In this document: positions 9,195 to 55,358 of the stretch, piece after piece
Layout of the letters: every line of letters starts with the position of its first letter
How positions within the stretch are numbered: position 1 is the first letter of the stretch
Origin: Candidatus Hadarchaeota archaeon
GTDB taxonomy: Archaea; CAYQAE01; CAYVLA01
Length of the DNA stretch: 64,000 bases
NCBI GenBank assembly: GCA_964621445.1
Contig: CAZUNO010000007.1
Coordinates: 1-64,000 of the forward strand
Direction: 5' to 3'
Made by a program: the position numbers and the translations under genes
Notes under the pieces: generated by a model
Seen by the model: only the letters and a program-made list of their open reading frames with translations
Database searches by the model: none
What the model was told of the DNA's origin: nothing

Positions 9195-9446
9195 TTGGAT
9201 AGGCAGATGGGGAAAGCTGAGGCCTTCGTTCTAATCTCGGTTGAGATCGGCAAGGCATCGGAGGTCAGAGAGAGGCTTCTGATGATAGATGCCGTTAAGG
9301 AAGTATACTGTGTCATGGGTCCCTATGACATAATTTGCAGGTTGCAGGGGGAATCTTCCGACGAGATACCGAGGATGGTGCTAAATTCGATACATCCCGT
9401 GGAGGGAGTGGTGGACACCATGACCGCAACCGTATTCACTCCGTAA
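9195..9446 (+). CDS. Stand-alone Lrp/AsnC ligand-binding (RAM) domain protein
   Basis: AFVLISVEIG, V.GPYDII and I..VEGVVDTMT; about 80 aa with no HTH. Confidence 0.85.
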   Translation: MDRQMGKAEAFVLISVEIGKASEVRERLLMIDAVKEVYCVMGPYDIICRLQGESSDEIPRMVLNSIHPVEGVVDTMTATVFTP

Positions 9447-39561: not shown

Positions 39562-40830
39562 TTAATGGCCCCTGGTCCGGGTGGTCTTTATCTCCCTGTA
39601 AAGTTTCCTTCTAATCATCACCGCCCAGAGAAAAAATCCGGTCAGCATCGCAACGCCGGAAACCACGAACCACTCGATTAAATATACCCAGGTGAGGGCC
39701 CTGCTCTTGGCCTCCATCGCTTTTGCGTTTAACCTCCCCCAGGCGGCATTGATTTCCTCGAATATCTCGGCGGCCTCATCATAGTCGTTTTGACGGAATC
39801 TTTCCTCGGCCTCCTTTTCCATCTGGTTCACCTCGTCCAGCTCCTGGTAGAGTTCAAGGGTTGAGGCGCCGAAGTTCTCCACGAATTCGAGCAGCGACAC
39901 GTAGAGAGAGGCCTTGTCCAGGTGGGTGTTTATCTCGACCCTCAGGCGGTGGGCCCTGATTATGTCGTCCGGTATCTCCTTTCCAGCCCCAAAATACAGA
40001 AGGTAAATTATGAAATCCTGGTACCAAGGCCAGTCGTTTAGCATCCTATTTGTGGTCCCGTAGCTGCCAAATACCTGGGTTTCACCAAGAACCCTTCCTT
40101 TTCCCTGTTCCCACCAAGCTATCCATGGGAATTCCTTCCCCGGAGCAATAGCGGTGGCTATAAGTCTCGCCCCATCCTTTGGTTTGACCTTGTTTAGAAG
40201 TTCAACTGGTCCCGAGCTTTTCCAGGGCAGCCGGGCCAGATGATGACCGGGATCCGTGAAATGAGGCTTCTGAAATGCCGCTCTCGGTGGGTTATATCCT
40301 CCCAGGCATCTGAAGGGGAGTATGCCATCTATTATGGTATCTCCCCATGACTTATACCAGCCCTCTCCTCCCCCTCCCCAGGAGGCATCCCCTCCCCACA
40401 TGCTGAGCGGCATTCCCTCCTCACGTACTGCATCCACGAACCAGGACATCCAGGCCTGCTCGAAGAAGACCTCCGGGAATTGGCTGCTTCCACATGAAGC
40501 CTCTCGGAGAAGTATCATATCCCTGGTTTCCACCATGTGTTGATAGTTCCTGGGCATGTAGATCCTCATCGCCCTGTTGATGGATTCCGGGTCCTTCTTA
40601 AGATGGCCGATTGAGTAATGTCCCGGCTGGGGTACGCCGAGGATCGATATCGAGGGGTCGGCTCCCAGTCTTTTGTGAAATATTCCACCCTGAGCCAGTC
40701 CCCTATCGATCATTAGCACCTCGATGGTAAGAGGGTCCCCGGAGGATAGATCAGCTAACGAGGTAACGCATGGAAGGGAAACCAGAATAATTGCCGAGAT
40801 GAAAAGGAGATGCGGAGCCGAGGCCCTCAT
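39562..40830 (-). CDS. Surface-protein family X paralog 5
   Basis: Signal peptide, MRIYMPR, SWGDT....ILPF, FVENFGA, and KSRALTWVYLIEW...RRKLYREI. Confidence 0.8.
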   Translation of the reverse strand: MRASAPHLLFISAIILVSLPCVTSLADLSSGDPLTIEVLMIDRGLAQGGIFHKRLGADPSISILGVPQPGHYSIGHLKKDPESINRAMRIYMPRNYQHMVETRDMILLREASCGSSQFPEVFFEQAWMSWFVDAVREEGMPLSMWGGDASWGGGGEGWYKSWGDTIIDGILPFRCLGGYNPPRAAFQKPHFTDPGHHLARLPWKSSGPVELLNKVKPKDGARLIATAIAPGKEFPWIAWWEQGKGRVLGETQVFGSYGTTNRMLNDWPWYQDFIIYLLYFGAGKEIPDDIIRAHRLRVEINTHLDKASLYVSLLEFVENFGASTLELYQELDEVNQMEKEAEERFRQNDYDEAAEIFEEINAAWGRLNAKAMEAKSRALTWVYLIEWFVVSGVAMLTGFFLWAVMIRRKLYREIKTTRTRGH

Positions 40831-40919
40831 GGATGATCTTTGTGATCATAAGTTAAATCCTTTTTCCTTCCTCGAAAGGGGGCGCTACCACAATAGAACC
40901 TGTTACTCACTGCGGTGGT

Positions 40920-41261
40920 TTAACCTATCGCGTCCTCCCCGCGTTCCCCGGTCCTTATCCTTATACATTCCTTGAGGTCGACCACGAAGATCTTTCCGTC
41001 ACCTATCTCTCCGGTTCTAGCACCATCTATTATTGCCTGGATGGTCGGTTCCACAAATTCCTCGTTTACTCCGATTTCTATCCTGACCTTCTTGAGGAGA
41101 TTCACTTCCCGGGTGACCTGTCTGTAGACCTCTTTGTACCCCCGTTGCTGGCCGCACCCAAGGGCATTGGTCACCGTCATCTTGAAAACCTCTGCCTTTG
41201 CCAAAGCCGCCTTTACGTCCGGGAGTTTATGCGGTTGAATTATCGCGGTTACTATCTTCAT
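40920..41261 (-). CDS. glnK: P-II family nitrogen regulatory protein
   Basis: [18 protein letters not shown] and [13 protein letters not shown]...IRIRTGERG; linked to amtB. Confidence 0.93.
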
Positions 41262-41272
41262 CTAAACGCCTC

Positions 41273-42595
41273 TCACTCGGCCACGAATATCTGAAATCCA
41301 CTGTAGGATTCCATGCCGTGTTCACCTATATCCAGACCCCTGATTTCCTCCTCCCGGCTGACCCTTAGCCCCATTAAACGGTCTAGCGCCTTGAAGAAGG
41401 CATACATAACCAATCCTACAAAGGCCAACAGTGCCACCACGCCGGTGATCTGGACCGATAGCAGTCCGAAGCCAGCGCCAGATGTAATACCCCTTGTGCT
41501 GTGGAAGAGGCCCACTGCCAGCGTTCCCCAAATGCCGTTCATTCCGTGGACCGGAATGGCACCCACGGGGTCATCGATTCCCCGCCGGTCCAGAAAGGTG
41601 ACCCCGAGAACGGTTACTGGACCCGAAAGGAGGCCTATGACCGCCGAGGAGGAGATGCTTACGAAAGCGCAGGGGGCTGTTATGGCCACAAGTCCACCTA
41701 GTGCTCCGTTCATGGTCATACCTACATCAGGCTTCCCAAGGCGAAACCAGGCTATTACCAGGGAGCCCAAAGCCCCGGTGGCAGCTGCGATATTGGTGTT
41801 CACGGCGACCTTTGCTATGAGGTCCGAGTCCATTCCCGACAGCGAGCTCCCGGGATTGAATCCAAACCACCCGAACCAGAGAATAAACACTCCCAGCGCT
41901 GCCAGTGGTATGTTGTGACCCATTATGACCTTTGCCTTTCCGTCACGGGCGAACTTTCCGATACGTGGTCCCAAAACCAGTGTCCCCATCAGGCCAGCGA
42001 TACCCCCCGTAGCGTGAACCACACTGGACCCTGCAAAGTCCACGAATCCCAGATCCTGAAGCCAGCCACCACCCCATATCCAGTGCCCGACGATGGGATA
42101 GACCAAGGTGCTAATCAACAGGGAGTATGTGATATATCCCGAGAACTTCATTCTCTCCGCCACGGCACCGGAAACTATGGTAGCAGCGGTCCCACAGAAC
42201 ACGGCCTGGAAAAGCCAGAATGCTGGCGTCGGAATTCCGGCCATTTCGGAGGGTAAGTTCGATAGAAAGACACCAGTTGTTCCCATTACCTGGTTTCCAA
42301 GCCCAAACATGATTCCAAAACCAATGACCCAGAACCCGATGGAGGCCATGCAGAAGTCAAGGAGGTTCTTCATGATGATGTTTCCAGCGTTCTTGGCCCG
42401 TGTGAATCCTACCTCCAACATGCCGAAACCGGCCTGCATGAAGAAAACCAGAAAGGCGGCCAGGAGCACCCAGAGGGTGTTTATGCTTCTCATTATCTCG
42501 GTCAGGCCTGGCGTATCTGATAGTGCAAAAACCCCTGGCAGAAAGACCATTAGAATCAGCAGGAGTATTGACGAACTCACAGCTCCGTTGTCCAT
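41273..42595 (-). CDS. amtB: Ammonium transporter
   Basis: FMQAGF, IVSGAVAER, DFAGSSVVH, LWFGWFGFNPGS and DDPVGAIPVHG. Confidence 0.96.
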   Translation of the reverse strand: MDNGAVSSSILLLILMVFLPGVFALSDTPGLTEIMRSINTLWVLLAAFLVFFMQAGFGMLEVGFTRAKNAGNIIMKNLLDFCMASIGFWVIGFGIMFGLGNQVMGTTGVFLSNLPSEMAGIPTPAFWLFQAVFCGTAATIVSGAVAERMKFSGYITYSLLISTLVYPIVGHWIWGGGWLQDLGFVDFAGSSVVHATGGIAGLMGTLVLGPRIGKFARDGKAKVIMGHNIPLAALGVFILWFGWFGFNPGSSLSGMDSDLIAKVAVNTNIAAATGALGSLVIAWFRLGKPDVGMTMNGALGGLVAITAPCAFVSISSSAVIGLLSGPVTVLGVTFLDRRGIDDPVGAIPVHGMNGIWGTLAVGLFHSTRGITSGAGFGLLSVQITGVVALLAFVGLVMYAFFKALDRLMGLRVSREEEIRGLDIGEHGMESYSGFQIFVAE

Positions 42596-42659
42596 GGTAA
42601 ATATGGGATCCGGAGCGCATATTAGTCTTCACTAAGGAATACAAGTAACGTAGTTTGCT

Positions 42660-42686
42660 ATACGTATTAGTAATAATTATACGTAT
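42660..42686. promoter_or_regulatory. Paired ATACGTAT palindromes (19-bp period) upstream of amtB-glnK
   Basis: ATACGTAT at 42660-42667 and 42679-42686; the same motif lies upstream of glnA and the glt operon. Confidence 0.75.
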
Positions 42687-42734
42687 TTATTCAATCGACG
42701 GGATTTGCACTGGTTCCGGGGAAGAAGATGGGCG

Positions 42735-43559
42735 CTAGAAGTAGGTTCTACCCTCGAATGCCAGGGCTGCCGGACCACGAACTGAAGTTCTATCCCCCAG
42801 GATTATGTCAAGTTTGCCCCCGGGCATTTCCACTGTCCATTGGTCATAATCGGGGTTGAGTTCATTTGCCGCCCTGGCTGCTGCCATAGCTCCAGAGCCA
42901 CATGCCTGGGTTTCGCACGCTCCCCTCTCGTGAACCCTCATATTCAACTTGCCAGGTTCATCCATCCGAACGAATTCCGTGTTGATTCCCTGGGGGCTAA
43001 ACTGATCGTGATACTCCATTGCGTGACCAATACCCTCCACATCGATGGATCCCAGATCACCATCAATGAATGTGACTGCATGTGGGTTCCCTACATCTAT
43101 GAGATGGTATATCAGCGCTGTTCCCGCGGCCTCAACCTTCCTGAATCCCTGGTATAGGGGCATGTCATCCATTTCCAGCTCTACTATGGCCTCCAGGTCA
43201 TTCACCATGTCAACGATCTTGGCCCTAACCGTTCCCCCGGCGGTGAGTATGTTGAAAGACTTTTCCTGCCCTTCCCATAACCTGAGATGAAGGGCAAGTG
43301 CGGCGCATCTAAGCCCGTTCACGCAGGTCTCGGCCTCCGACCCGTCGGCGTTAAATATCCTGAACTGGACTCCATGGTCCTCCCTCCTAAGGAATAATAC
43401 ACCATCGGCGCCAATACCCCTGTTTCGATTACACTTTTGCGAGCAAAAGCTGGATTTTCGGTCTTCCTCCACTACCTCGGATCCGGTCTCATCGATAAGC
43501 ACGAAATCGTTTCCCAGTCCATGAAGCTTTAGAAATTCCACTTTTTCCATTTTCACCAT
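42735..43559 (-). CDS. dapF: Diaminopimelate epimerase
   Basis: KLHGLGNDF, GIGADG, FNADGSEAETCVNGLRC, GNPH and HERGACETQACGSG. Confidence 0.92.
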   Translation of the reverse strand: MVKMEKVEFLKLHGLGNDFVLIDETGSEVVEEDRKSSFCSQKCNRNRGIGADGVLFLRREDHGVQFRIFNADGSEAETCVNGLRCAALALHLRLWEGQEKSFNILTAGGTVRAKIVDMVNDLEAIVELEMDDMPLYQGFRKVEAAGTALIYHLIDVGNPHAVTFIDGDLGSIDVEGIGHAMEYHDQFSPQGINTEFVRMDEPGKLNMRVHERGACETQACGSGAMAAARAANELNPDYDQWTVEMPGGKLDIILGDRTSVRGPAALAFEGRTYF

Positions 43560-44726
43560 CTACAGGGAAAGTTCAAGCATCCTCTCGCATGCCTCTTTGG
43601 TCCTTTCCAGGTCCGGTACAAGCGCGAACCGGAGGAAGTCCTTTCCAGCGTCCGTCGATTGACACAGGGCCTTTCCGGGTACGGTATTCAGGTAAGCTCC
43701 CTCGAGAAGCATCTTGGTGAATTCCAAGGAGTCCATTCCATTGGGCGCTCTAGCCCATATATAGAAGGTCGCGTCCGCATAAACGGACTCCAGACCCATT
43801 TCCTCCAGGGTCCCAACAAGCAAATCCCTCTTCTCCCTGTATTCCCGCCTTAGGCTATCCACATGATCCTCATCTGATAATGCGGCCACGGCCGCATCCT
43901 GGATGAATGTTGCTGCACCCGAATGTGCCTGAGTCTGCACCTTTTTGAAGGGGTCAAGTAGTTCCTTCCTCCCGGCCACAAAAGCTATCCTATAACAGGT
44001 CATGCTTGACCTCTTGGATAACGAGTTAAAGACCAGGGAAACATCCCTTGCACCGGGGATGGAAAACACCGATACCGGTTTCTCATCATAATAGAGCTCG
44101 GAGTATGCCTCATCGGATGCCAGAAGAACGTCGTTTTCCCTACAGAATTCCACGGCGTCCTGGAGGAACTCAACGGGCGCTATCTTGGTGGTGGGATTAT
44201 TCGGGTAGTTGATCCATAGTATCTTTGCCCGTTTACATATCTTGGAAGGTATGCTGGAGAGATCGGGCAGAAAGGAGTTTTCCTCTTCCAGAGGGAGATA
44301 GTAACATCTACCACCCCGGGCCCCGGTTCCGGTCGTGTAGGGAGGATATCCCGGGTCCGGAATCAGGACCACATCATCGGGGTTCACATAGGCCAGAGGT
44401 GTCAAGAATACGGCCTGTTTACAGCCTATAGTTGCCGTGATCTCCGAGTTGGGGTCCAGGGACACCCCAAATCTCCTTTCAAACCAGGTGGCGACCGCGG
44501 ACCTGAATTCAGGGGACCCTTCATAGCTCGGATATCCCGACCGGGCCCTCCTATCCAGTCCGCTCTTACAGGCCTTACGAACGATCATGGGGGTAGGGGA
44601 AGTTGGATCTCCAACTCCAAAATCAATCACGTCCACTCCTTTGCTCTCCAATTCATCCCGGGTCCTGTCAATTTCCGCAAAAGCGTATGGCCGAATCTTG
44701 GTGATGAAGCTACTCGGGGATACCAA
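43560..44726 (-). CDS. dapL: LL-diaminopimelate aminotransferase (class I/II PLP)
   Basis: PYAFAEID, DFGVGDP, INYPNNPT, SDEAYSE and SLSKR; adjacent to dapF. Confidence 0.78.
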   Translation of the reverse strand: MVSPSSFITKIRPYAFAEIDRTRDELESKGVDVIDFGVGDPTSPTPMIVRKACKSGLDRRARSGYPSYEGSPEFRSAVATWFERRFGVSLDPNSEITATIGCKQAVFLTPLAYVNPDDVVLIPDPGYPPYTTGTGARGGRCYYLPLEEENSFLPDLSSIPSKICKRAKILWINYPNNPTTKIAPVEFLQDAVEFCRENDVLLASDEAYSELYYDEKPVSVFSIPGARDVSLVFNSLSKRSSMTCYRIAFVAGRKELLDPFKKVQTQAHSGAATFIQDAAVAALSDEDHVDSLRREYREKRDLLVGTLEEMGLESVYADATFYIWARAPNGMDSLEFTKMLLEGAYLNTVPGKALCQSTDAGKDFLRFALVPDLERTKEACERMLELSL

Positions 44727-44738
44727 TAGATCTACAAC

Positions 44739-45524
44739 CTATGCATAGAGTCTAGAGTAGGGCCTCGTTTCCCGGGGTACTACCTTGCAGAACTCGGTGG
44801 GGTTCACTTCCCGTTTCAACTCGAATCTCTTCCTGAAGTCATCGATATGAGTGGTCAGGAAGTCTCTGTCCGCCTTGTCCAAGCTCTTGATCCGGGCACC
44901 CTCCCCTAGCTGCATTTCGTTGATCTTTCCACGTATGTAAATGATTCCGCCGTGCATACCAGTTCCGATGAATCTCATGCGATGTCTCTTGTATCCCAGG
45001 CCCAGAACGATCACCCGGCCTCCAGCCATATACTCCCCCAGAAAATCCTGAGCAGTTCCTCCAATCATCAAGATGGGAAACCTCTCCCCGTGCTCCTTAA
45101 TATGGAGGGCGGCTCTATAACCAGCATCCTCCCGAACCAATATGGAACCGCCTGTGGCCGACATTCCAAGTATATCCCCACATCTCCCCTCGACGATTAT
45201 CTCTCCCTCATGCATGGTATTACCAACCCCGTCCTGAGCATTCCCATGAACAACCAGGATATGTCCATCCATGAAGGACCCGAGATCGTTTCCGGGGGTT
45301 CCCCAGATCTCAATTTTGGTTGGGGGAAGGCCATTAAGCCGGGTTCCTATATACCTCTGCCCATATACCCCTCTGAGAATTATTTTCCTGCTACCCGACC
45401 GGGCTGCGGATAGAATTTCGGTGTTGAGTTCCCTGAATTCGAGCTGTCCGGCTTCGATCTCCGTGTGCTTTGTATCAGCGCTGCAGACGGGTCTCCTTTC
45501 CGGACTGGTGGTGGTTGACATCAT
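44739..45524 (-). CDS. Glutamate synthase GXGXG beta-helix subunit
   Basis: GQRYIG, GTPGNDLG.FMDG, GNAQDGVGNTM and DFLGEYMAGG. Confidence 0.88.
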   Translation of the reverse strand: MMSTTTSPERRPVCSADTKHTEIEAGQLEFRELNTEILSAARSGSRKIILRGVYGQRYIGTRLNGLPPTKIEIWGTPGNDLGSFMDGHILVVHGNAQDGVGNTMHEGEIIVEGRCGDILGMSATGGSILVREDAGYRAALHIKEHGERFPILMIGGTAQDFLGEYMAGGRVIVLGLGYKRHRMRFIGTGMHGGIIYIRGKINEMQLGEGARIKSLDKADRDFLTTHIDDFRKRFELKREVNPTEFCKVVPRETRPYSRLYA

Positions 45525-47041
45525 TGACCAGCTCCCCTTATCCCCAGAACGTCAAGCTCCCAGTCCGTTAGGCCGATGCCCCTCAACTGCTCGCGATTTC
45601 CCCGCAAGCTTTCCAGGGCATTGATGCCCATTCCTCCCAGCATTTCCTTGATCTCCAGGGACCAGGCGTGAAGTAGGCGTACCAGTCTTCTGGAAGCGAC
45701 ATCGGGATTAATTCTCTTTGATAGATATGGGTCCGTAGTACATATGCCCCAGTTACATATGCCGGTATAGCACTTCTGGCACAAGGTGCAGCCCATGGCC
45801 ACCAGGGCAGCCGTACCCAGGTACACCGCGTCTGCCCCCAGAGCTATTGCCTTCACAACGTCAGCGCTACAGCGAAAACCACCTGCGGAGATTATTGAGC
45901 ATTCGTTTCTAATCCCCTCGCTTCTCAAACGGGAATCGATTGAGGCCAGTGCCATCTCGATTGGTATGCCCACGTTATCCCGTATGGCCTTGGGAGCGGC
46001 CCCGGTTCCCCCTCTCAGGCCGTCTATCGCTATGACATCAGCTCCAGCCCTTGCTATACCGGAGGCTATGGCCGGTGCATTGTGAACGGCAGCTATCTTG
46101 ACTGAAATGGGCTTCTGGTAATTCGTCGCCTCCTTCAATGCGAATATCAACGTTCTCAGATCCTCGATCGAGTAGATATCATGCTGGGGGGCCGGGGAAA
46201 GTGCATCAGTTCCGGCGGGTATCTTTCTGGTGGATGATATCTCGGTTGAGACCTTTTCTCCTGGAAGGTGCCCACCTATGCCGGGCTTTGCACCCTGGCC
46301 AATCTTTATTTCCACCATAGACGAGTTTGCGAGATATTCAGGCTCGACCCCGAAGCGGCCTGAGGCGCATTGAACTATGGCGTGATCCTTGTATTTTCGT
46401 AATTTCTCGGGAAGTCCACCTTCTCCCGAGTTGAACAATGTCCCTGATTCATTTGCCGCTCGTGCCAGGGATTCCTGGGCCTGTCCGCTGATGGCCCCAA
46501 AGCTCAGGGCCGAGAAGATGAGAGGTGTTTCTATTTCCAGCAGAGGGTCCTCATCGCCAGCATTCCCATCCATCAATATCGCTTTCTTGGGCTTGCGTCC
46601 CAGGAACGTCCTGAGCTCCATGGGCTCTCTGAGGGGGTCGATTGAGGGATTTGTAACTTGGGAGGCGTTTAGGACCATGTGGTCCCAGTAGATCGTCTGG
46701 TCCTTATCGTTACCGCAACCGGCAAGAAGCGCCCCACCCGATTCTGCCTGCCTCTTAATATCCGATATCTTTTCCCGCGTCCAGTTAGAGTTTCGGGTAT
46801 AAGGGTGCTGGTTTTCCGAGATGCTTAAAGCGGAAGTGGGGCAGAGCACCACACATCTCTGGCATCCTGCACACTTAGATTCGTCGCTCAGGATGATGTC
46901 CCTCCCCTGGTCATATGTGTGGACATCGAATCCACACTGTCTTATGCAGACCTCACATCTGATACAGCGATCATCATCCCTGGCGATGCTGAAATTTGGG
47001 AGAAGCTGGGTTTCAAGCAACGACCTCACCCCTATGAACAC
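45521..47041 (-). CDS. Archaeal-type glutamate synthase FMN subunit with N-terminal 2x[4Fe-4S]
   Basis: CIRCEVC and CAGCQRC; QVTNPSIDPLRE, EIKIGQGAKPGIGGHLPGEKV and CTLCQKCYTGICNWGI. Confidence 0.92.
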   Translation of the reverse strand: MFIGVRSLLETQLLPNFSIARDDDRCIRCEVCIRQCGFDVHTYDQGRDIILSDESKCAGCQRCVVLCPTSALSISENQHPYTRNSNWTREKISDIKRQAESGGALLAGCGNDKDQTIYWDHMVLNASQVTNPSIDPLREPMELRTFLGRKPKKAILMDGNAGDEDPLLEIETPLIFSALSFGAISGQAQESLARAANESGTLFNSGEGGLPEKLRKYKDHAIVQCASGRFGVEPEYLANSSMVEIKIGQGAKPGIGGHLPGEKVSTEISSTRKIPAGTDALSPAPQHDIYSIEDLRTLIFALKEATNYQKPISVKIAAVHNAPAIASGIARAGADVIAIDGLRGGTGAAPKAIRDNVGIPIEMALASIDSRLRSEGIRNECSIISAGGFRCSADVVKAIALGADAVYLGTAALVAMGCTLCQKCYTGICNWGICTTDPYLSKRINPDVASRRLVRLLHAWSLEIKEMLGGMGINALESLRGNREQLRGIGLTDWELDVLGIRGAGQ

Positions 47042-48153
47042 TCATATGAAACACCATCCCCAAGGCGACCTATTATGGGAACTCCTCCCTGCGGGGACCA
47101 CGCCCTATCGAGGTCTTGGTCGATCATTCGGAGCGGAGCCTCCTCCGAGGATAGATAGAGCACGTCCCCGGAAATACCCGCGGTCAATGGCCTGAGACGA
47201 ATCCTATCGGTGAGTCCGATCATCTCTCCCTCTCTGGCAATTATTACCGAGAACGGGCCATTTAGTAGGAGTCCACCATAAGTTATTCTCAAGGCCCTGT
47301 AGAGACGCCTTTTGTCGGGTTCCATCCTATCGATGGTATCCCAAAGTGGGGGCGCTAGCACCCTTGCTGCAAGCTCCAGAGGCAGGGCATGTCCCCTTAC
47401 CAAAAGATCCATTGTGTAGGCAATGACCTCGGTGTCAGTGAAGAAGCTGCATCTATAGCCGTGGTCCTCCACGAACCTCTTGTTTGCACCGTAGGATGAG
47501 ATCTCCCCATTATGAACGACTGACCAGTCAAGCATGCTAAACGGGTGCGCACCCCCCCACCAGGCGAGGGTGTTGGTTGGAAATCTTCCATGTGCCAGCC
47601 AGATGTATCCTCTGTAGTCCTGGAGACGGTAGAACCTGGCAAGATCTCCCGGGTACCCGATCCCCTTGAAAACACCCATATTCTTCGCGGCGGAAAATAC
47701 GAAGGCATCCCCAATACCGTGGTTGATCTCCGTCACCTCTTCGGCAACCATTTCCTGTGAATTCGGTTGCCCCTCCTCCGTCCTGAGGAAGTATCGCCAA
47801 AGAATTGGGGCCTTGGCCACCGCGCTCACCTCATCGTCGGTCGGTATCCGTTCCTCGTCCCGGACATCGAAGTTTTCGTATAATCTGGCTTCGGTCAGCT
47901 CCTTTCCTTCCCTGGACTCGTACATGATATGAAACGCGTAGTCGTCGGCATGATCCGGATAAAGACCATATATCGAGAACCCGCCGCCGAGACCATTGGA
48001 CCTCTCCTTCATATTGGATATGGCCCTTATTGTGGATCGGCCATCCAGCAACTTCCCCGACATGTCCATCATTCCGAATATGGAGCAGTTGGATATGACC
48101 TTCGTGTCACCGTAAGGGTTGTTCTTCCTCTCAATATTCAGCAACATTATCAC
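47032..48153 (-). CDS. Glutamate synthase class II (Ntn) glutamine amidotransferase subunit
   Basis: N-proximal Cys (NCSIFG), ERSNGLGGG, HGRFPTNT..WWGGAHPF, VHNGEISSYG and DRIRLRP. Confidence 0.9.
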   Translation of the reverse strand: MIMLLNIERKNNPYGDTKVISNCSIFGMMDMSGKLLDGRSTIRAISNMKERSNGLGGGFSIYGLYPDHADDYAFHIMYESREGKELTEARLYENFDVRDEERIPTDDEVSAVAKAPILWRYFLRTEEGQPNSQEMVAEEVTEINHGIGDAFVFSAAKNMGVFKGIGYPGDLARFYRLQDYRGYIWLAHGRFPTNTLAWWGGAHPFSMLDWSVVHNGEISSYGANKRFVEDHGYRCSFFTDTEVIAYTMDLLVRGHALPLELAARVLAPPLWDTIDRMEPDKRRLYRALRITYGGLLLNGPFSVIIAREGEMIGLTDRIRLRPLTAGISGDVLYLSSEEAPLRMIDQDLDRAWSPQGGVPIIGRLGDGVSYECS

Positions 48154-49411
48154 CTTCCGTTAGGATCTTCCGCCTGCAGGCGGTAGGCAGGTCGACCAGC
48201 GAGAAACCTTCCGCGGTGGGGGGTCTATGGAGATCACTCAGAGGGGTGCCGTTCCTCATCAACTGCAGGTATATTCCAGTATTGTCGATATTGCCGACCC
48301 GTATGAACCCCACCAGTTTGCCGTTCCTGGTAACGAATTTGCTGTAATTTAGGTCCCCTTCCTCACATACCTGGTTCCAATTACCTCCCTCCCTGGCCTC
48401 AGTGATGCCGGCGGAGAGTATTGAAGTTCCGAAAAAATGCATAGAATTCATTGAGGTAGCCCACTGCGAACTAGCTCTCTTTCCTGCCATATTGTATCCT
48501 GCAACCATGCCCTCTACATATGCGGCCGGCCAGAGAGCCAGGGTTCGGTTTTGCCCCTCGATAAAATCAAAGGTCTGGGCACAATCACCGGCAGCGTAAA
48601 TGTGAGGTACATTGGTGCTCATGGACTTGTTCACCATTATTCCCCTATCTACCTGAATCCCGGCATCCTCCGCGAGGTCGGTTCGGGGCCGAACGCCTAT
48701 AGCGACCACCAGTAATTCACAGGAGAGCCGACGTCCATCATCCAAAATCGCCAGGATCCCCTTTCCGCTTGAGCATACACTTTCGAGGGTGTGGCCGGTA
48801 ATCAAATTGAGTCCTCGATCCTTGAAGAGAAGCTGGACCATATTCGATGCCGGTTGGTCCAGGACTGATGATAGTATTCTGGAGGCTAGCTCGACAATAG
48901 TTACCTCCAGTCCGATTTCCAGAAGCGGCTCGGCCAGAGAACACCCTATCAGTCCCCCGCCCAGAATTACCACTTTGGAGATATTCCCACTTTCAATTTT
49001 CTCCCTGATAACCCGGGCATCGGATATACCGGAAAATGTCAGGGCGTTAGACCTCAAACCGGGGATAGGAGGAATGAATGGGGTGCCCCCCGTAGCCAGC
49101 AGGAGGTCATCGAACCCGATCGAGTCCCCATCATCCAATTGAACCTCACGCGAATCGGTCTCCAGTCGAACCGCCTTTTTGCCACCAAGAAATGTGACCT
49201 GGTTCCGTTCATAGAATTCCGCCGGCCGATACCATAGATCCTCCACATTCCTCTTACCGCAAATAATATCCCCAATTGAAGGTCTACTGTAGGGAGGGTT
49301 GTTTTCCTCCGATACCACACAGATATCCTGGCAACAGCCAAGCCTCCTGATGGCCTCTATGGCCCCCACCGAAGCGGCCGAGTTTCCGATTATGATGTTA
49401 TGATAACTCAT
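48131..49411 (-). CDS. NAD(P)/FAD-dependent oxidoreductase (glutamate synthase-associated)
   Basis: IIGNSAA, LLLATGG, GGGLIG and IYAAGDCA. Confidence 0.85.
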   Translation of the reverse strand: MSYHNIIIGNSAASVGAIEAIRRLGCCQDICVVSEENNPPYSRPSIGDIICGKRNVEDLWYRPAEFYERNQVTFLGGKKAVRLETDSREVQLDDGDSIGFDDLLLATGGTPFIPPIPGLRSNALTFSGISDARVIREKIESGNISKVVILGGGLIGCSLAEPLLEIGLEVTIVELASRILSSVLDQPASNMVQLLFKDRGLNLITGHTLESVCSSGKGILAILDDGRRLSCELLVVAIGVRPRTDLAEDAGIQVDRGIMVNKSMSTNVPHIYAAGDCAQTFDFIEGQNRTLALWPAAYVEGMVAGYNMAGKRASSQWATSMNSMHFFGTSILSAGITEAREGGNWNQVCEEGDLNYSKFVTRNGKLVGFIRVGNIDNTGIYLQLMRNGTPLSDLHRPPTAEGFSLVDLPTACRRKILTEGDNVAEY

Positions 49412-49836
49412 GTAGTCTCCTCCAGAGATATCGCTTCGTTAGGGCAATGCTCAACGCAGGCCGGGATTTCCCGATCTTCACACAGATCACATCTGATGGG
49501 GTGATCCTTTCCCTTCCTGACCGCCCCAAATGGACATACCAGAATACAGGTCCAGCACGATCTACACCTGTCATAGTCCAGTTGAATCGAGCCATCGACT
49601 CTTTTCAGAGCCCCTGAGGGACAGGAGTATACACATGCGGGGTCATCGCACTGTCGACATTGCAGTGGAAAGGTGACCGGCATTATTTCGTGGACGGTTA
49701 CCCTTGATTCCGGGCGAGGCTTCTCCAACTTGAAGCAATTAATCAAGTCGTTGGACTTCGAGTGGGCAACGACGCACCAAATCTCGCAGAGGTGGCATCC
49801 GATGCATGCATCCTCGTTAACTGCCAGTCTATTCAA
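49408..49836 (-). CDS. 4Fe-4S dicluster (CooF/DmsB-like) protein, first gene of glt operon
   Basis: CIGCHLC, CRQCDDPACVYSCP, CRSCWTC..VCP and CDLC...PACVEHCP. Confidence 0.88.
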   Translation of the reverse strand: MNRLAVNEDACIGCHLCEIWCVVAHSKSNDLINCFKLEKPRPESRVTVHEIMPVTFPLQCRQCDDPACVYSCPSGALKRVDGSIQLDYDRCRSCWTCILVCPFGAVRKGKDHPIRCDLCEDREIPACVEHCPNEAISLEETT

Positions 49837-49890
49837 AGGACCACTTCAGGTACGGGGGTATAGTGGTTGTGCATATTATTGGAAAAATAT

Positions 49891-49930
49891 TTACGTATTG
49901 AAGTACGAGTTAGTATTTGAAATACGTATT
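49891..49930. promoter_or_regulatory. TACGTA-core palindromic sites in the divergent glt/regulator intergenic region
   Basis: TTACGTAT at 49891-49898, degenerate GTACGAGT at 49903-49910, and perfect AATACGTATT at 49921-49930 abutting a TATA-like TTTAAA. Confidence 0.7.
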
Positions 49931-50022
49931 TAAAATCTGGTTAAACCAATTCTTAAAAATAGGAAACAAATGGGACTAAATACATAAATACGGAACAGAA
50001 TACTTTCCTAGCGTGAATAAGT

Positions 50023-51057
50023 ATGGATGTTGGGGAAGCGGAATATAGAAAGGTTCAGGTCCTTGGCCGGTCAAGTTATGCAGTAACCCTGCCCAAGGAT
50101 TGGGTGCGTGATAGGAAACTAGATTCCGGATCAGTTGTAGTTGTAACCGTTGATAAGAAGGGAATACTGCATGTCATGCCGGAGGTCATGCACTCGGAGA
50201 AGGAGGAGCCCGCCGAGAAAAAGTTAGATGCAACTGATATCACCACCGGAGGAGCTCTGGCAAGCACGATCAAGGCATGCTATAAGATCGGATACGAGAA
50301 CATCAACATAAGGCATCCAGGCGGGCTTCGCCCTGATTTAATCAGGGAGATACATGAGGCGGTTGATAGTCTATACGGAACGCTGGTGGTAAAGGAATCC
50401 GCCAATGAAACGGTTGTCCACACCTCCATAGACGTCCGTACCTTCACGGTCAGTTCCCTGATCTCCAGAATGGGTTCATTCTTCCTTTACCTATCAGAGG
50501 AGGTCGAGAAGGCTCTCAGGGAGGGCGTTTTGCAGGACCCAACGACGGTTGAGTACCGAGCGAGGGAGGTCGACAAGATATACTCGCTACTGGTAAGACA
50601 ACTAGTACAGGGAGTAAAGAGCCAGCAGGTGGCCTCGAGGGTTGGGCTGGCCGATGTGATTCAATGCCTCGGCTCTAGAATGGTTGCTAAGGCCCTCAAG
50701 GACATGACCAGAAGCATGTTCATGATATCGGGAGTCGCAAATCAGGCATCAAAAGGCAGAAAAGAGGATGTAGAGGAAATAATCCGTTTCATTAGCGAAA
50801 TTAGGGCAATGTACGATAAGGCATATCAGGCCCTCAGGCGCGAAGATGTTGAACGGGCCGCCGAGATACTTGGTGAGGAGGACTCCTTCCATAATAAACT
50901 GGTGGATTTCGAGAGATCTCTTCCCAAGGAGGAGGACCAGAGGTCCGTGATTTCGGCCGAGGTTTCCTTTGTATGGGAGCTACAGAACGTGCTCAGATCG
51001 ATAATGATACTTGCAGAAATCGCGGTTAACCGGACCGTTGAACGTGAGGAGATGTAG
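50023..51057 (+). CDS. AbrB/SpoVT-type DNA-binding domain plus PhoU-like helical domains transcriptional regulator
   Basis: N-terminal RKVQVLGRSSYAVTLPKDWV; helical PhoU-like repeats (EVDKIYSLLVRQL). Confidence 0.85.
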   Translation: MDVGEAEYRKVQVLGRSSYAVTLPKDWVRDRKLDSGSVVVVTVDKKGILHVMPEVMHSEKEEPAEKKLDATDITTGGALASTIKACYKIGYENINIRHPGGLRPDLIREIHEAVDSLYGTLVVKESANETVVHTSIDVRTFTVSSLISRMGSFFLYLSEEVEKALREGVLQDPTTVEYRAREVDKIYSLLVRQLVQGVKSQQVASRVGLADVIQCLGSRMVAKALKDMTRSMFMISGVANQASKGRKEDVEEIIRFISEIRAMYDKAYQALRREDVERAAEILGEEDSFHNKLVDFERSLPKEEDQRSVISAEVSFVWELQNVLRSIMILAEIAVNRTVEREEM

Positions 51058-51058
51058 A

Positions 51059-52138
51059 CTACCCCAGCGCTTCATTCAATGCTTCTAACAGGATCCCGTT
51101 CTGGTCCGGAGTACCGATTGTAACCCTTATGAACTGACCCTCCAGCCCCTGAACCCCCTGAAGGTCTCTTACCAATACTCCTCGATTAGCGAGTTCGTTG
51201 ACCAGGTTTGGGATTCGGGGATCGACCCTGATCATCAAGAAATTCGCTTCCGAGGGCAGGGGAAATAACCCTTCCATCCTAGATACCTCGGAAAATACCT
51301 CCAGGCGATTCTTCCTGATTCTCTCCCATATCATGGAGTAATACGGTGAGCAGGACAGAGCCGATATTGCGGCCGAAGCTGAAAGTTTACTCACGCTAAA
51401 GGGGTTCCGGGACTTGCGCATCTTGGAGATCAAGGATTCATGACCGACCGCGTATCCAACACGAAGTCCTGCCAGGCCAAAGGACTTGGACATCGATCTG
51501 GCTATAATGAGATTCGGGTGTTGATCAAGGATGTCAAGTGCAGAGCAACCGGAGAATTCGGCGTACGCCTCGTCGAGGAACACAATTCCATCGGAGTTCT
51601 CGACTATCTCTATCAATTCATGCCGCTCTATTGCCCTTCCAGTTGGATTATTGGGCGAGCAGAGAAAAGTGATTTTTGATCTCTCTCCTCCGGAAATTAG
51701 GTCACCCGACCTAACGCTATATTCCCTGTCTTCCGTGCTCGCGAAGAATATCTGGGCCTCCCTGAGCATGGACATCAGGATGTACAGGCTGTAGGAGGGA
51801 ACCGGAATTATTATCCTGTCAAAAGGTTCCACAAAGACCTTGCAGACGATATCGATGATCTCGGTGCAGCCGCCGGCCACAGCTATATTTTCCTTTGGGA
51901 AACCGATGTGTTTGCCTATCGCGGTCCTCAGATGAACATAATCAGGGTGAGGATAGCGATTTATTCTAGGTATTTCTTCGAAAATTGCCTGTTGGACCGC
52001 CGGAGCTGGAGGGTAGGGACTCTCATTTGATGCCAAGTTGACTACATGTTCGGGATCAAGACCGAATAGGCGATGGACATCCCCAGGGAACAGGCCAGGG
52101 TCGTAGGGCTCTATGTAATCAATTACATCTCTATGCAT
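51059..52138 (-). CDS. hisC: Histidinol-phosphate aminotransferase-like PLP enzyme (HisC/CobD family)
   Basis: LASNESP, NRYP, CSPNNPTG, DEAYAEF, RSMSKSFGLAGLRVGY and PSEANF. Confidence 0.82.
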   Translation of the reverse strand: MHRDVIDYIEPYDPGLFPGDVHRLFGLDPEHVVNLASNESPYPPAPAVQQAIFEEIPRINRYPHPDYVHLRTAIGKHIGFPKENIAVAGGCTEIIDIVCKVFVEPFDRIIIPVPSYSLYILMSMLREAQIFFASTEDREYSVRSGDLISGGERSKITFLCSPNNPTGRAIERHELIEIVENSDGIVFLDEAYAEFSGCSALDILDQHPNLIIARSMSKSFGLAGLRVGYAVGHESLISKMRKSRNPFSVSKLSASAAISALSCSPYYSMIWERIRKNRLEVFSEVSRMEGLFPLPSEANFLMIRVDPRIPNLVNELANRGVLVRDLQGVQGLEGQFIRVTIGTPDQNGILLEALNEALG

Positions 52139-52142
52139 GTAT

Positions 52143-52460
52143 CTAGAGCCCTTCCATCATATTTCCAAGTCTTTCAAGGCGCTTGCTGACCTCATCTATG
52201 GTTGTGTCCTTGCCGGGCTTCTCGGCAACTCCGGCCTGGGACCAGAACAGCCTGGCGATTATCAGCATTAGCTTGCCCGCGTAACCAGGTGCGTGAGGGA
52301 GGATATCAGCCGCAAGATCTCCAAATTCCTCAAGGACATCATCATCCATCTCTTTGACCATGGTGCTGGCCTTTCCCAGAAGAGAGATTGCATTTCCCAG
52401 AACCTTTTCCCTCTTCACATATGCTTTGGCAGCATCGCTCGTTACTCTATGTACACCCAT
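52143..52460 (-). CDS. Hypothetical 105-aa helical protein co-transcribed with glnA
   Basis: Starts 9 bp after the glnA stop, with a GAGGTGA RBS; no recognised domain. Confidence 0.7.
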   Translation of the reverse strand: MGVHRVTSDAAKAYVKREKVLGNAISLLGKASTMVKEMDDDVLEEFGDLAADILPHAPGYAGKLMLIIARLFWSQAGVAEKPGKDTTIDEVSKRLERLGNMMEGL

Positions 52461-52469
52461 TCTATCACC

Positions 52470-53933
52470 TCAGTAATCCATATACTTCATTATCTCCCAC
52501 GGCGTTACGTAGAGACAATATTGATTCCACTCATCGATCTTGAGACCAACAAATTGTTCGAATATGTGATCCCCGAGAAGGTCCAAGAGGACTTGATCCG
52601 TGCTCAGATGATCGATGGCGTCTCTCAAGGTGGTCGGTAGCTCTCCCACGCCGTGTTCCTCCTTCTCAGCTGCGGACAGTCCATACATGTCCGTACGTAG
52701 GGGGTCTCCAGGCTCTATCTTGTTCTTAATTCCGTCCAGCCCGGCCGCCAGCATTGCCCCGAAAGCAACGTACGGGTTGCAGGTTGGGTCTGCGGCCCTG
52801 TACTCACAACGTATGGCTCCCGGGCTGCTAAAGTATAGAGGTACCCTGATGAGGGCGCTCCTGTTCCTGGGGCTCCAGCTGATGTTAATTGGGGCCTCGA
52901 ACCCCGGGACCAATCTCTTGTAGCTATTCACGGTCGGGCAGCAGAGAGCGGTAAGGGCCTTTGAGTGTTCAATTAGCCCGCCGATGTAGTATCTGGCCGT
53001 CTGACTCAGGTTGTAATCCTCGTCAGGATCGTAGAAGACATTCTCGCCCTTGAAGGGCTCACCTTTCCAGAGGCTCTGGTGGGTATGCATTCCGCTGGCA
53101 TTATCCAGGTAAATTGGCTTGGGCATGAAGGTGGAGACCCATCCATACCTATCGGCCACGTTCTTGGCAGCGAATTTGTAGGTGTAGAAGGCGTCCCCGC
53201 ATTCGACGAGCGTCTTAGCTTTGTAATTAAGTTCGACCTGACCGGAGGTCGCAACCTCGTGGTGATGGTACTCTATATTGACATCCATGCTTTCGAGATA
53301 TGAGGCCAGTTCGTTTCTATAATCATTAGTAGTATCTTCGGGAGGCGCACGAAAGTATGCCTCCTTGGGTCTCAGAGGAACCTTCCCGGTCGTCGTCTCG
53401 GGTGACCGGGGGACCACCCTGGGGGGACCCCAGGAATCTCCCTTTCCACCATTTGGGGATACGAAGGGATCGTATACCAGGTTCGTTGGATCTATGCTTT
53501 CAAAGACAAAGAACTCAATTTCTGGGCCAAAAACCGCAGAATAGCCCATCGATTCGGCCATCTCCACCGCCTTTCTACCAACGTAACCACGTGGGTCAAC
53601 CTCGGATGGATTTCCATCGCTGCTTTCACCAAAGGCCTCGAATATGTCCCCGAAGACCATTACCGAGCGTTGAACTGGTTCCTCGATCCAGGGAATGTAC
53701 CTTAAACTGGATGTATCAGGTACCCAAACCATATCGCTACTTTCTATGGACTTAAATCCGCGAATCGATGAGCCATCGAATCCTACACCTTCCGTGGCAT
53801 CTCCTTTTATGAACTCCCTAACCGGTATGGTGAAGCTCTGGAGTATACCCCTCAGATCGCTAAACATGCACATGACGTTCTTGGCCTGAGAGTTCTCTAT
53901 TAGCTCGAGGAAGTTGTCCTTCTCCATACACAT
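52470..53933 (-). CDS. glnA: Glutamine synthetase type I
   Basis: FDGSSI.GF, GPEIEFF, HHHEVA, TFMPKP...NASGMHTHQSL, NSYKRLVPGFEAP and NRSALIR. Confidence 0.96.
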   Translation of the reverse strand: MCMEKDNFLELIENSQAKNVMCMFSDLRGILQSFTIPVREFIKGDATEGVGFDGSSIRGFKSIESSDMVWVPDTSSLRYIPWIEEPVQRSVMVFGDIFEAFGESSDGNPSEVDPRGYVGRKAVEMAESMGYSAVFGPEIEFFVFESIDPTNLVYDPFVSPNGGKGDSWGPPRVVPRSPETTTGKVPLRPKEAYFRAPPEDTTNDYRNELASYLESMDVNIEYHHHEVATSGQVELNYKAKTLVECGDAFYTYKFAAKNVADRYGWVSTFMPKPIYLDNASGMHTHQSLWKGEPFKGENVFYDPDEDYNLSQTARYYIGGLIEHSKALTALCCPTVNSYKRLVPGFEAPINISWSPRNRSALIRVPLYFSSPGAIRCEYRAADPTCNPYVAFGAMLAAGLDGIKNKIEPGDPLRTDMYGLSAAEKEEHGVGELPTTLRDAIDHLSTDQVLLDLLGDHIFEQFVGLKIDEWNQYCLYVTPWEIMKYMDY

Positions 53934-53980
53934 CGCCAGGTACTGTTACAATAGATCTAAGAAAAGTATTGACCAATGAG

Positions 53981-54008
53981 AATACGTATTCATACAACGA
54001 ATACGTAT
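53981..54008. promoter_or_regulatory. Paired ATACGTAT palindromes (19-bp period) upstream of glnA
   Basis: AATACGTATT at 53981-53990 and ATACGTAT at 54001-54008. Confidence 0.75.
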
Positions 54009-54116
54009 AGCAATTCCAGGTTATTATCCCTAATCCCTGTGGTTGGTTGCACGATAATGTGGAAATCATACAAGATTTTTATCGAATAGGATTCGTCATA
54101 TGGACGGGAAAGGGCC

Positions 54117-55358
54117 TTGAGGGCGAAGACACCGATCGTTTTGATGTGCATTATCCTTTTTTTATCATCACAGTGCCAGGGACAAGGGGATCAGAGAAAG
54201 ATAGAGGTCCTTGTATTGAGCAAGGCAAACGTCGTTCAGACCCTGTCGGCCTGGTTCAATGCGGAGCCTTCAATAGATTTCTCTATCGTGGTCACCCGGG
54301 TTTACGGCGAGGTGACGAGGGAAGATATCAGGAGGTACATGAGGCTCTATTTCCCCAGGTCCTACCAAGCCCTGAATTCCTATGATTTCTACTACCTTGC
54401 CCAGACCGATATGACATTCCTTTCCCCCAAGCAGGAGAAATGGATCTATGATGCTATTACTGGGGGATCGAAGGGCGGTGTCAATACCAGGAGCGTCATG
54501 AGCACCCATGACTGGTTCAATGTACCCTGGGCGGATAGCGTGGTGTCAGAGGCTTTTCCGAATAACGCGGATACAGTTGTGTCCGATGAAGCGCATCAGC
54601 AGGCACCTCCCGGTCCTCTGGTGATCAAGGACGACCCTGAATTACCGGCGATAATGAAACCATATAAGGAGCCGCTGGAAGGGATCTTTACCAACCTGGA
54701 AGGCCTAAACACCATACCCAAGCCCGGGTCTGTCATCCTTTCCTACGTCAGGAATAACCAGGGGCAAGGACACCCCATTCCGGGACAGGTTGCCCACATA
54801 TTTTACTGGAAATGGAACAATTCAATCACCTTCACCTTTCAGGATCAACCCGTCCATCTTTTCTGGAATCAACCAGGCTCCACACTGCACAACCCCTACA
54901 CCATTGATATAACGGCAAATGTGATCTGGTTCGCAACCGGCCGTGAGCTTCCAGATGACCCCTTAAGGGTTCACGATTTCAGGCGGGACCTCTATGACTT
55001 TAACATCGGGAAGTCCCTGCTGGTGAGCCTTCTGGACTTTGCCGAGAAGTTCGGGGCCAATCCCGCTCCGATGTATCGGGATCTTGACGAGGTTCAGGGG
55101 TTGAGAGCTCAAGCCAAGGATCATTACCTGGAGGGAAGATTCGATCATGCCTACCAGTCAATGAAGGAAGCAAACAGTGCCCTGGAGTCCCTGGAGGAAA
55201 AGGCAGCCAATCTGAAGGACCGTGCCCTGCTCTGGGTATATATCGTGGAGTGGCTCAGCATCACCGGGGCCCTTCTGGTAGCCGGGTTCGTGGTGTGGAC
55301 CCTGATGGTTAGAAGAACCCTGTACAGGGAGGTATCGGCAACCCGAACCTTTGATTAG
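54117..55358 (+). CDS. Surface-protein family X paralog 6
   Basis: Signal peptide, MRLYFPR, FAEKFGA, and KDRALLWVYIVEW...VWTLMVRRTLYREV. Confidence 0.8.
   Translation: MRAKTPIVLMCIILFLSSQCQGQGDQRKIEVLVLSKANVVQTLSAWFNAEPSIDFSIVVTRVYGEVTREDIRRYMRLYFPRSYQALNSYDFYYLAQTDMTFLSPKQEKWIYDAITGGSKGGVNTRSVMSTHDWFNVPWADSVVSEAFPNNADTVVSDEAHQQAPPGPLVIKDDPELPAIMKPYKEPLEGIFTNLEGLNTIPKPGSVILSYVRNNQGQGHPIPGQVAHIFYWKWNNSITFTFQDQPVHLFWNQPGSTLHNPYTIDITANVIWFATGRELPDDPLRVHDFRRDLYDFNIGKSLLVSLLDFAEKFGANPAPMYRDLDEVQGLRAQAKDHYLEGRFDHAYQSMKEANSALESLEEKAANLKDRALLWVYIVEWLSITGALLVAGFVVWTLMVRRTLYREVSATRTFD

Follow-up and report, generated by a model that had tools for sequence, protein, structure and literature searches.

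A probable gap-free TACGTA operator and a candidate AbrB-PhoU regulator of nitrogen assimilation in an uncultured archaeal lineage

How nitrogen assimilation may be controlled in an archaeon in which NrpR is not found is the question raised by a gene cluster at positions 40920-53933 of the window analysed here, i.e., a stretch of 64,000 nucleotides (G000:C7:1-64000) from an archaeal genome of 3.21 Mb with 52% G+C and a completeness of 96%. The cluster consists of three minus-strand gene rows, namely, I) amtB-glnK; II) the glutamate synthase (glt) row, which ends in dapL-dapF; and III) glnA-orf105-hisC, and of one plus-strand gene, which encodes an AbrB-PhoU protein and is divergent from the glt row and convergent with hisC. 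To our knowledge, transcriptional nitrogen control in archaea is known mainly via NrpR in methanogens. In an earlier note on this DNA, a palindrome upstream of all three rows was put forward as a nitrogen operator, with the AbrB-PhoU protein as its likely cognate factor. The follow-up analysis supports this proposal through clade linkage, motif rarity and conservation, and leads to a reading that is held at a probability of roughly 0.72: ATACGTAT, with the core TACGTA, would be the operator of a nitrogen-assimilation regulon made up of the three rows and would be read by the AbrB-PhoU protein. This reading is carried by observations on the sites, which are conserved and fixed in position, on the gene order, on the linkage of the regulator clade to nitrogen genes in each of two phyla, and on an acidic motif that its PhoU domain has lost.

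Within the window, ATACGTAT occurs exactly at 42660, 42679, 49922, 53982, 54001 and 59421, i.e., six times where 0.31 occurrences are expected, and none of 100 shuffles reaches six. Five of these fall in the promoters of amtB-glnK, glt and glnA, with near edges 55-86 bp from the gene starts (about 50-95 bp in the earlier note); the one-mismatch unit at 49891 and the degenerate unit at 49903 (5/8 letters, weak) that this note listed were recovered as well. The matches it reported elsewhere, at 30064 (one mismatch) and 59421 (exact), both fall inside long open reading frames (ORFs). With one mismatch allowed, 19 matches are found in the window against 12.2 expected and 6 of 100 shuffles reach 19, so that no clear enrichment is seen at this level. 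Genome-wide, 34 copies compare with 33 for a reversed control, and the enrichment is judged to be local because the genome-wide count is no higher than the control. The chance of an exact site in a single promoter amounts to 32-51 in 3000 dinucleotide shuffles. Among the 2015 predicted genes with an upstream spacer of at least 40 bp, an exact site within 150 bp upstream is found for four, namely amtB, the regulator gene, glnA and the gene divergent from glnA, and TACGTA is found in just 23 promoters. The 8-11-8 tandem of ATACGTAT occurs just twice in the 3.21 Mb, at amtB and glnA, and the 13-mer that these two promoters share in opposite orientation is found genome-wide only at 42655-42667 and 54001-54013.

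The cluster order is preserved in three other genomes of the same family (f1; G001-G003) and in the metagenome contig L043, and the position of the sites relative to the predicted core promoter was compared. A matrix for the B recognition element (BRE) and TATA box was trained on 1605 promoters of G000, and 12 nitrogen promoters were aligned on its best match; all BRE/TATA positions are predictions, and G002 glt was aligned on its second-best match, both of which reduce the weight of the alignment. A hexamer with at most one mismatch to TACGTA starts at offset -33 in 8 of the 12 promoters and at -35 in another two, compared with 3 of 1605 background promoters at -33 and 11 at -35 to -33, the window's own promoters being counted in. 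Further units lie mostly at -52, -24, -14 and -2, about one helix turn (about 10 bp) apart. At amtB-glnK, the predicted BRE/TATA (42618..42633, minus strand; best match to the 16-mer matrix, 43rd percentile) is preceded by a degenerate unit at -19 (42646..42653, hexamer with one mismatch), the anchored site at -33 (42660..42667) and a distal exact site at -52 (42679..42686); a one-mismatch hexamer is found at -33 of L043 amtB as well. At the glt row (best matrix match at 49880..49895, minus strand, 74th percentile), the anchored exact site at -33 (49922..49929) is accompanied by a one-mismatch unit at -2 (49891..49898), which overlaps the predicted BRE, and by weak, degenerate filler units or half-sites between both (49903..49917). 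The glnA row (best matrix match at 53959..53974, minus strand) has its anchored site at -33 (54001..54008) and a proximal site at -14 (53982..53989), the latter being exact in G000 only. Both copies of the shared 13-mer contain exactly the -33 sites.

In the four relatives (G001-G003 and L043), exact TACGTA is present in six of eight glnA and glt promoters and with one mismatch in the other two (G002), where 0.010-0.021 copies are expected per 150 bp. The predicted BRE/TATA of glnA lies at -47 to -49 from the ATG in five of five genomes, and the anchored glnA hexamer is exact at -33 in G001, G003 and L043 and has one mismatch at -35 in G002. For glt, a one-mismatch hexamer is found at -33 in G003 and at -35 in G002, and the unit at -2, overlapping the predicted BRE, is present in all five promoters; in an alignment of the glt spacers, ACGTA of the 49891 unit forms five invariant columns in a row while the flanks have diverged. 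The pairs at amtB and glnA described in the earlier note stand as to their 19-bp period and their inverted 13-mer, but relatives do not conserve the period: at these promoters in G001-G003, no two TACGTA were found within 30 bp of each other, and five other genomes hold only two such pairs, at contig ends of G003 and away from these promoters. The 19-bp period is, as far as the alignments indicate, two steps of a lattice of about 10 bp and not a conserved dimer-of-dimers spacing. The conserved feature is one anchored site with degenerate units about 10 bp apart.

These patterns also bear on whether TACGTA could be a lineage-specific core-promoter feature, a cluster of methylation or restriction sites, or a chance product of AT-rich spacers. 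TACGTA is known as a restriction site, genome-wide the 8-mer shows no excess, and the unit over the glt BRE could belong to the BRE itself. Such an explanation has little to say about the rarity of the motif (23/2015 promoters; near-match at -33 in 3/1605), about its conservation while the spacer flanks diverge, or about the recurrence of sites at three unrelated promoters with one offset, and it is considered highly improbable. That the sites at the three promoters are functional operators is very likely.

The regulator gene (50023..51057, plus strand) encodes a protein of 344 aa with an N-terminal AbrB/MazE-type domain (PF04014, 28.3 bits with a cut-off of 24.7, residues 12-49) and a C-terminal PhoU domain (PF01895, 27.8 bits, cut-off 23.5). 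Its predicted model comprises a low-confidence AbrB domain (monomer), an alpha/beta middle domain and a PhoU-like helical bundle. The Foldseek top ten is led by a PhoU structure and mostly annotated as PhoU, with E-values of 1.4e-3 to 1.2e-2 and none at or below 0.001, and no solved structure of a full-length AbrB-PhoU protein was matched by sequence. By domain content the protein belongs to the AbrB-PhoU family, and it shows neither of two marks of pst-type PhoU, namely, pst linkage and the motif E(D)XXXD. With regard to the first, no pst match was obtained in the five family-f1 loci, as the earlier note had observed for this locus along with the divergent orientation, or in the locus of the more distant genome G028 described below. 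With regard to the second, E(D)XXXD is given as the conserved metal-binding motif of PhoU in PMC5686610. Its counterpart here, ERxxD(H), occurs in all 27 pst-adjacent proteins and in none of 16 clade proteins, in which residues 226-231 read KDMTRS or similar; of 100 other rows, some of them duplicates, 99 retain the E column and 98 the D column. The clade has an invariant GLxDVIQxLG patch instead, which is present in both phyla, and the phosphate/metal pocket looks remodelled in these alignments.

Archaeal proteins that combine AbrB and PhoU domains are called putative phosphate-uptake regulators in PMC2872624, and the protein might bind the sites in response to a signal other than nitrogen, e.g., phosphate, energy or carbon state, or act as a constitutive activator. 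Besides the annotation, such a role would fit with the PII gene not being found in G001 or G003 and with the predicted model, in which no nitrogen ligand site is identifiable. It would fit less well with the loss of the acidic motif from all 16 clade proteins, with a different, motif-keeping paralog standing divergent from the pst operon, and with a regulon found to consist of nitrogen-assimilation and aminotransferase rows only; a non-nitrogen signal is regarded as improbable.

The extent of that regulon was assessed with an operator matrix built from 13 sites in the glnA and glt promoters of the relatives. Among 2016 G000 promoters (the first glt gene, missed by the gene caller, was added by hand), amtB ranks 1st, glnA 4th, the regulator 5th and glt 6th, a ranking that is only partly independent, and correspondingly weaker as support, as the training sites were picked by likeness to ATACGTAT. 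A wider regulon was looked for and not found, with rank 2 falling inside a RimK-like ORF and no nitrogen link seen for rank 3. The latter site (G000:C19:52586-52611, before an uncharacterised gene, C19:52643) holds a cluster of two TACGTA and further GTAA repeats. A second glnA-like gene (on contig C3) has no site in its upstream region, and the regulon does not seem to extend beyond the present cluster.

At 57-79% identity, 14 other full-length homologs of the regulator were found, after which identity drops to about 30%; between this nitrogen clade and other AbrB-PhoU members it is 21-33%. When 401 archaeal genomes were searched with a profile, members of the clade turned up in G000-G003 and in G028 only (461-599 bits, next 192), and scans of the collection with the regulator alone as query returned one locus each. 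G028 belongs to a different, single-species phylum. Its locus reads amtB-glnK-amidohydrolase-glnA-orf105-hisC, with the regulator ortholog (33% identity) at the end and convergent with hisC; the grouping is supported at 99.4/99 in IQ-TREE (34 chosen sequences) and at 0.998 and 0.86-0.87 in FastTree. The near-identical composition of this cluster (L044:8184-14771) suggests old linkage or block transfer, and three CTTATATA(G/T) repeats, 15-16 bp apart, precede the ortholog. By comparison, glnA, amt, glnK and gltB had no match in 105 other family loci with flanks of 1.5-3 kb, nearly all of them taken from the 214 matches of the profile search; in a 20-kb locus of G015, fetched for its glnA, pst-linked family genes lie about 6 kb away.

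The NrpR domain (NRD, PF01995) was not found in any clade-bearing genome, i.e., in G000 (96% complete) or in G001-G003 and G028 (91-100%), while the controls M. jannaschii and M. acetivorans gave positive matches, and GGAA-N6-TTCC has no exact match in the three G000 spacers. The phylum of G000 has only five species in the genome collection, and the fifth genome, G004, has the NrpR domain and GGAA-N6-TTCC before amtB, with no regulator ortholog and no TACGTA in 17.8 kb. At this G004 locus (L047:8931-12787), amtB-glnK is followed by a 703-aa ORF that resembles type III glutamine synthetase on inspection, with an NrpR-type operator upstream. Family f13, Archaeoglobus-like by the names of its orf105 homologs, has the same glnA type and orf105. 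There, TACGTA is present in none of 30 glnA promoters examined (of 39 matches), and the nitrogen clade is absent from the matches in all nine f13 genomes of the 401-genome search. The motif is kept at orthologous promoters alongside the clade in f1 and was not found where the clade was not found (G004 and f13). Many f13 glnA promoters (L201-L230) have an A/T-rich palindrome like TGAA-N6-TTYA upstream of BRE/TATA; as an NrpR-like box, TGAA-N6-TTCA was rejected, its loose pattern occurring in 7 of 11 with NrpR and in 11 of 19 without, i.e., with no link.

How the protein might recognise the hexamer is suggested by comparison with its paralogs. All 15 family-f1 clade proteins have an (L/M)GRSS loop, which aligns by eye with W9-G10-N11 of MazE, described as DNA-contact residues in PMC4333400. 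G000 has five AbrB-PhoU genes. One of these (G000:C1:65581-66570) is divergent from a pst row, has CTATATATAG in the spacer and keeps the acidic motif (the names pst, OPT and pyrH were assigned by inspection of sequences). TATATA lies within 130 bp upstream of 25 of 27 pst-adjacent family genes, two or more times in 18 of them, and in G000 promoters it is found in 115/2015 and twice or more in 17/2015; this background is from G000 only, and the resemblance of TATATA to a TATA box makes the comparison less telling. A paralog with a TSGGS loop has a conserved TTCGAA-centred palindrome upstream in four of four family genomes (G000:C21:14750-14917; L165, L173, L194) and may represent a second repurposed paralog. 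In three of these four genomes, an OPT-like transporter row lies divergently beside it. With nothing but the loop of the nitrogen clade as a lead, a separate paralog was located in family f20 (L234-L238, genus g211), which has LGRSS, lies upstream of a two-domain ABC permease and is placed apart from the nitrogen clade by trees. Exact ATACGTAT stands about 40 bp upstream in two of its five genomes, and TAAGTA plus TATGTA in the other three; a TGGST relative of this paralog has three TATATA and one TAAGTA. TATATA upstream is not a motif of the family-f1 nitrogen clade, yet it is present at the G028 ortholog. A single-residue code, in which arginine would specify CG, was rejected, as several arginine loops pair with TATATA or with nothing. 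A broader proposal is that AbrB-PhoU proteins, a widespread archaeal family on which little work exists, are reprogrammable one-component regulators, in which the hairpin loop sets a 6-bp palindrome (the putative pairs being TGGST-TATATA, TSGGS-TTCGAA and LGRSS-TACGTA) and the PhoU bundle sets the signal, and in which the nitrogen clade exchanged its phosphate/metal pocket for a nitrogen sensor and replaced NrpR, without PII, as a dual activator-repressor; this is offered tentatively, at somewhat less than even odds.

The same comparisons help to judge whether the operator is real and read by an unlinked protein, e.g., of the Lrp/AsnC, TrmB or ribbon-helix-helix type, with the AbrB-PhoU gene as just a neighbour or target. 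Short, gap-free tandem palindromes are typical of ribbon-helix-helix proteins too, and the motif is absent from the promoters of the G028 ortholog. However, every paralog examined has its own palindrome beside its gene, the f20 LGRSS paralog carries the same 8-mer, and the clade sits in nitrogen clusters of two phyla. The nearest other candidates are a winged-helix DUF4443 protein (27956-28576) and a ligand-domain-only Lrp at 9207; among the scanned genes from 28.6 to 64 kb, no other DNA-binding family came up. The orf105 product was considered as a DNA binder and rejected as unlikely, having no DNA-binding fold match and being common in f13, with TACGTA in 0/30 glnA promoters there. An unlinked reader is considered unlikely.

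Several observations weigh against the AbrB-PhoU protein as reader of TACGTA in a nitrogen circuit, or narrow the support for it. The loop of the G028 ortholog is VGKSS, and TATATA-type boxes stand at the promoter of this gene, where there are three of them, and at that of amtB, with TACGTA absent from 15 kb of that locus; these boxes fit a changed code and are no direct support for TACGTA binding, and the nitrogen block may have been transferred between lineages as a unit. The arginine loops TGRST, TGRSS, VGRST and LGRST come with no TACGTA, and two LGRSS proteins (L256, L257) have only the one-mismatch hexamer TACTTA. The f20 paralog amounts to one independent contrast, drawn from one genus, and a TATA box may overlap with its site. 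The five genomes of the nitrogen clade in f1, from which all TACGTA promoters come, are kin and represent conservation, not five independent events. No unit at -33 is found in the G001 and L043 glt promoters, i.e., two of five glt promoters. The BRE/TATA scores of the nitrogen promoters range from the 43rd to the 81st percentile (22nd for G002 glt), so that promoter strength is middling, whereas clearly weak promoters might be expected under an activator model. Binding, sign and signal are what we infer here from sequence comparison.

If the AbrB-PhoU protein does read TACGTA, it would dimerise through its swapped-hairpin AbrB domain, each dimer would read one gap-free palindrome of 6-8 bp with the loop L14-G15-R16-S17-S18, and additional dimers would occupy degenerate units spaced by about one helix turn; this part of the model is quite likely. 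Under nitrogen shortage, dimers on the -33 palindrome and phased units would help TFB/TBP to load at glnA and amtB. For archaeal activators, binding upstream of BRE/TATA has been reported, e.g., for Tar (TK0271) of Thermococcus kodakarensis (PMC6737238) and for TFB-RF1 (PMC5937170), and for that reason activation is preferred to repression at glnA and amtB. The mark of upstream activators of the Tar, TFB-RF1 or Ptr2 type, a site at a fixed position before the predicted BRE/TATA, is found here, and by this analogy it is slightly favoured that -33 is an activation position and that nitrogen shortage turns on glnA and amtB. At glt, the unit on the BRE would let high occupancy damp transcription, so that regulation there is perhaps repression. 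The predicted promoter of the regulator gene (49975..50022, plus strand) has three one-mismatch hexamers over and downstream of its TATA candidate; in G003 an exact hexamer stands about 20 bp before the start codon, and in G001 the feature is weak. Autorepression is possible, and these units would limit the level of the regulator.

The signal, in this model, would be nitrogen status rather than phosphate, sensed by the remodelled PhoU bundle without a need for GlnK, which is reasonably probable provided that the protein binds the sites. GlnK as an obligatory partner was rejected as unlikely: neither PII nor Amt was found in G001 (99% complete) or G003 (100% complete with 8% contamination), and GlnK is probably dispensable because these genomes keep the regulator and sites. 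In G002 (L038/L048:1014-1804), amtB is without most of its middle and glnK is split over two frames, so the Amt-PII pair appears, on these sequences, to be decaying in this family. Candidate signals would be a small molecule (2-oxoglutarate or glutamine), glutamine synthetase, or the product of orf105. The latter family comprises 39 proteins including the query, of 102-107 aa, in 35 of 251 genomes, with a highly conserved MGVHRVTS-like N-terminal stretch and HAPGYAGK loop. The gene directly follows glnA in G028, throughout family f1 and in many f13 genomes (32 of 37 f13 genomes have it). The model of the protein is a helical bundle (pLDDT 90) whose best fold match, at Z 7.6, is in the usual range for helical bundles, and no Pfam, NCBIfam, Atlas or PDB sequence match was found; a role as a partner of glutamine synthetase is possible.

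Placed beside known systems, the proposed regulon would fill the place of NrpR in this lineage. NrpR of Methanococcus maripaludis is described in PMC2723118 as a repressor at GGAA-N6-TTCC before nif, glnA and glnK-amtB. The core targets are alike, with glnA and amtB-glnK under one palindromic operator in an archaeon and gltB1-3 added here; unlike the NrpR operator, the present one has no spacer and lies mostly upstream of BRE/TATA, and its proposed reader is of an unrelated fold. With archaeal PhoU-family factors, the regulator shares the domain order, the divergent location beside a target operon and a gap-free TA-YR-TA palindrome, but it belongs to a separate clade in nitrogen clusters, with LGRSS instead of TGGST, TACGTA instead of TATATA, and ERxxDH lost. 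Its N-domain likens it to the swapped-hairpin domains of MazE/VapB (PF04014 above cut-off; MazE in PMC4333400), from which it differs in having no toxin partner seen, in its fusion to a 280-residue sensor part and in the metabolic operons proposed as its targets. The site of Tar, TGGACA-N8-TGTCCA, and its possible helix-turn-helix (PMC6737238) are different as well. In Bacillus, TnrA and GlnR are MerR-like, and TnrA is mainly an activator under nitrogen depletion that is controlled by glutamine synthetase, according to PMC9249791. In the model proposed here, as with TnrA/GlnR and cyanobacterial NtcA, one factor would activate ammonium-scavenging genes and repress where its site overlaps the promoter; fold and operator are unrelated, and those factors act on bacterial RNA polymerase, in contrast to TBP/TFB here. 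By domain matches, the proposed factor is neither MerR-like nor CRP-like. The NtcA operator follows the pattern GTA-N8-TAC, which has one match in the amtB spacer and none at glt or glnA. In the literature searched, with subscription papers mostly outside the search, no TACGTA archaeal operator, AbrB-PhoU nitrogen regulator or AbrB-PhoU activator was found.

The gene identities given in the earlier note for the cluster were upheld by Pfam and NCBIfam matches. On the minus strand, glnK (40920..41261; Pfam P-II, E 3.5e-27; one copy in the genome by blastp) encodes the PII signal protein and amtB (41273..42595; Ammonium_transp, E 1.9e-126; single copy) the ammonium transporter. The glt row, also on the minus strand, begins with a 4Fe-4S protein (49408..49836; Fer4 families) and a FAD/NAD(P)H oxidoreductase (48131..49411; Pyr_redox_2), which is kept in G001-G003 and L043 and is the probable electron input to glutamate synthase. 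It continues with the amidotransferase subunit gltB1 (47032..48153; GATase_2), the FMN/Fe-S subunit gltB2 (45521..47041; Glu_synthase, E 1.1e-136) and the GXGXG subunit gltB3 (44739..45524; GXGXG), and ends with a dapL-like gene (43560..44726; LL-diaminopimelate aminotransferase-like, best NCBIfam matches being DapL models below cut-off) and the diaminopimelate epimerase gene dapF (42735..43559; DAP_epimerase), whose position is identical in G001 and L043. The glnA row, on the same strand, comprises type I glutamine synthetase (52470..53927; TIGR00653 above cut-off, with a further in-frame ATG at 53933), orf105 (52143..52460), encoding the conserved helical protein of 105 aa, and, as its final gene, hisC for histidinol-phosphate transaminase (51059..52138; TIGR01141 above cut-off). 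Paralogous genes for membrane-anchored surface proteins lie on either side of the nitrogen cluster (39562-40830 and 54117-55358). An Rfam scan of 40000-55000 matched no RNA element, and a scan for sigma-70 promoters and terminators gave nothing above chance. The glt and glnA spacers show no differences in DNA contigs of two runs, one of which may be the source sample.

The nitrogen system described here is well supported computationally and narrow in distribution, with its clade in 5 of 401 sampled genomes, all of them uncultured. It gives a candidate factor, an operator, a position rule and a target set, for the testing of which a single purified protein would do, and offers a first, tentative protein-loop-to-DNA-box rule for the AbrB-PhoU family. 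The finding further suggests that the very common archaeal label "phosphate uptake regulator" hides paralogs with other jobs. If true, it would represent a further solution to archaeal nitrogen control, one in which no PII protein is required.

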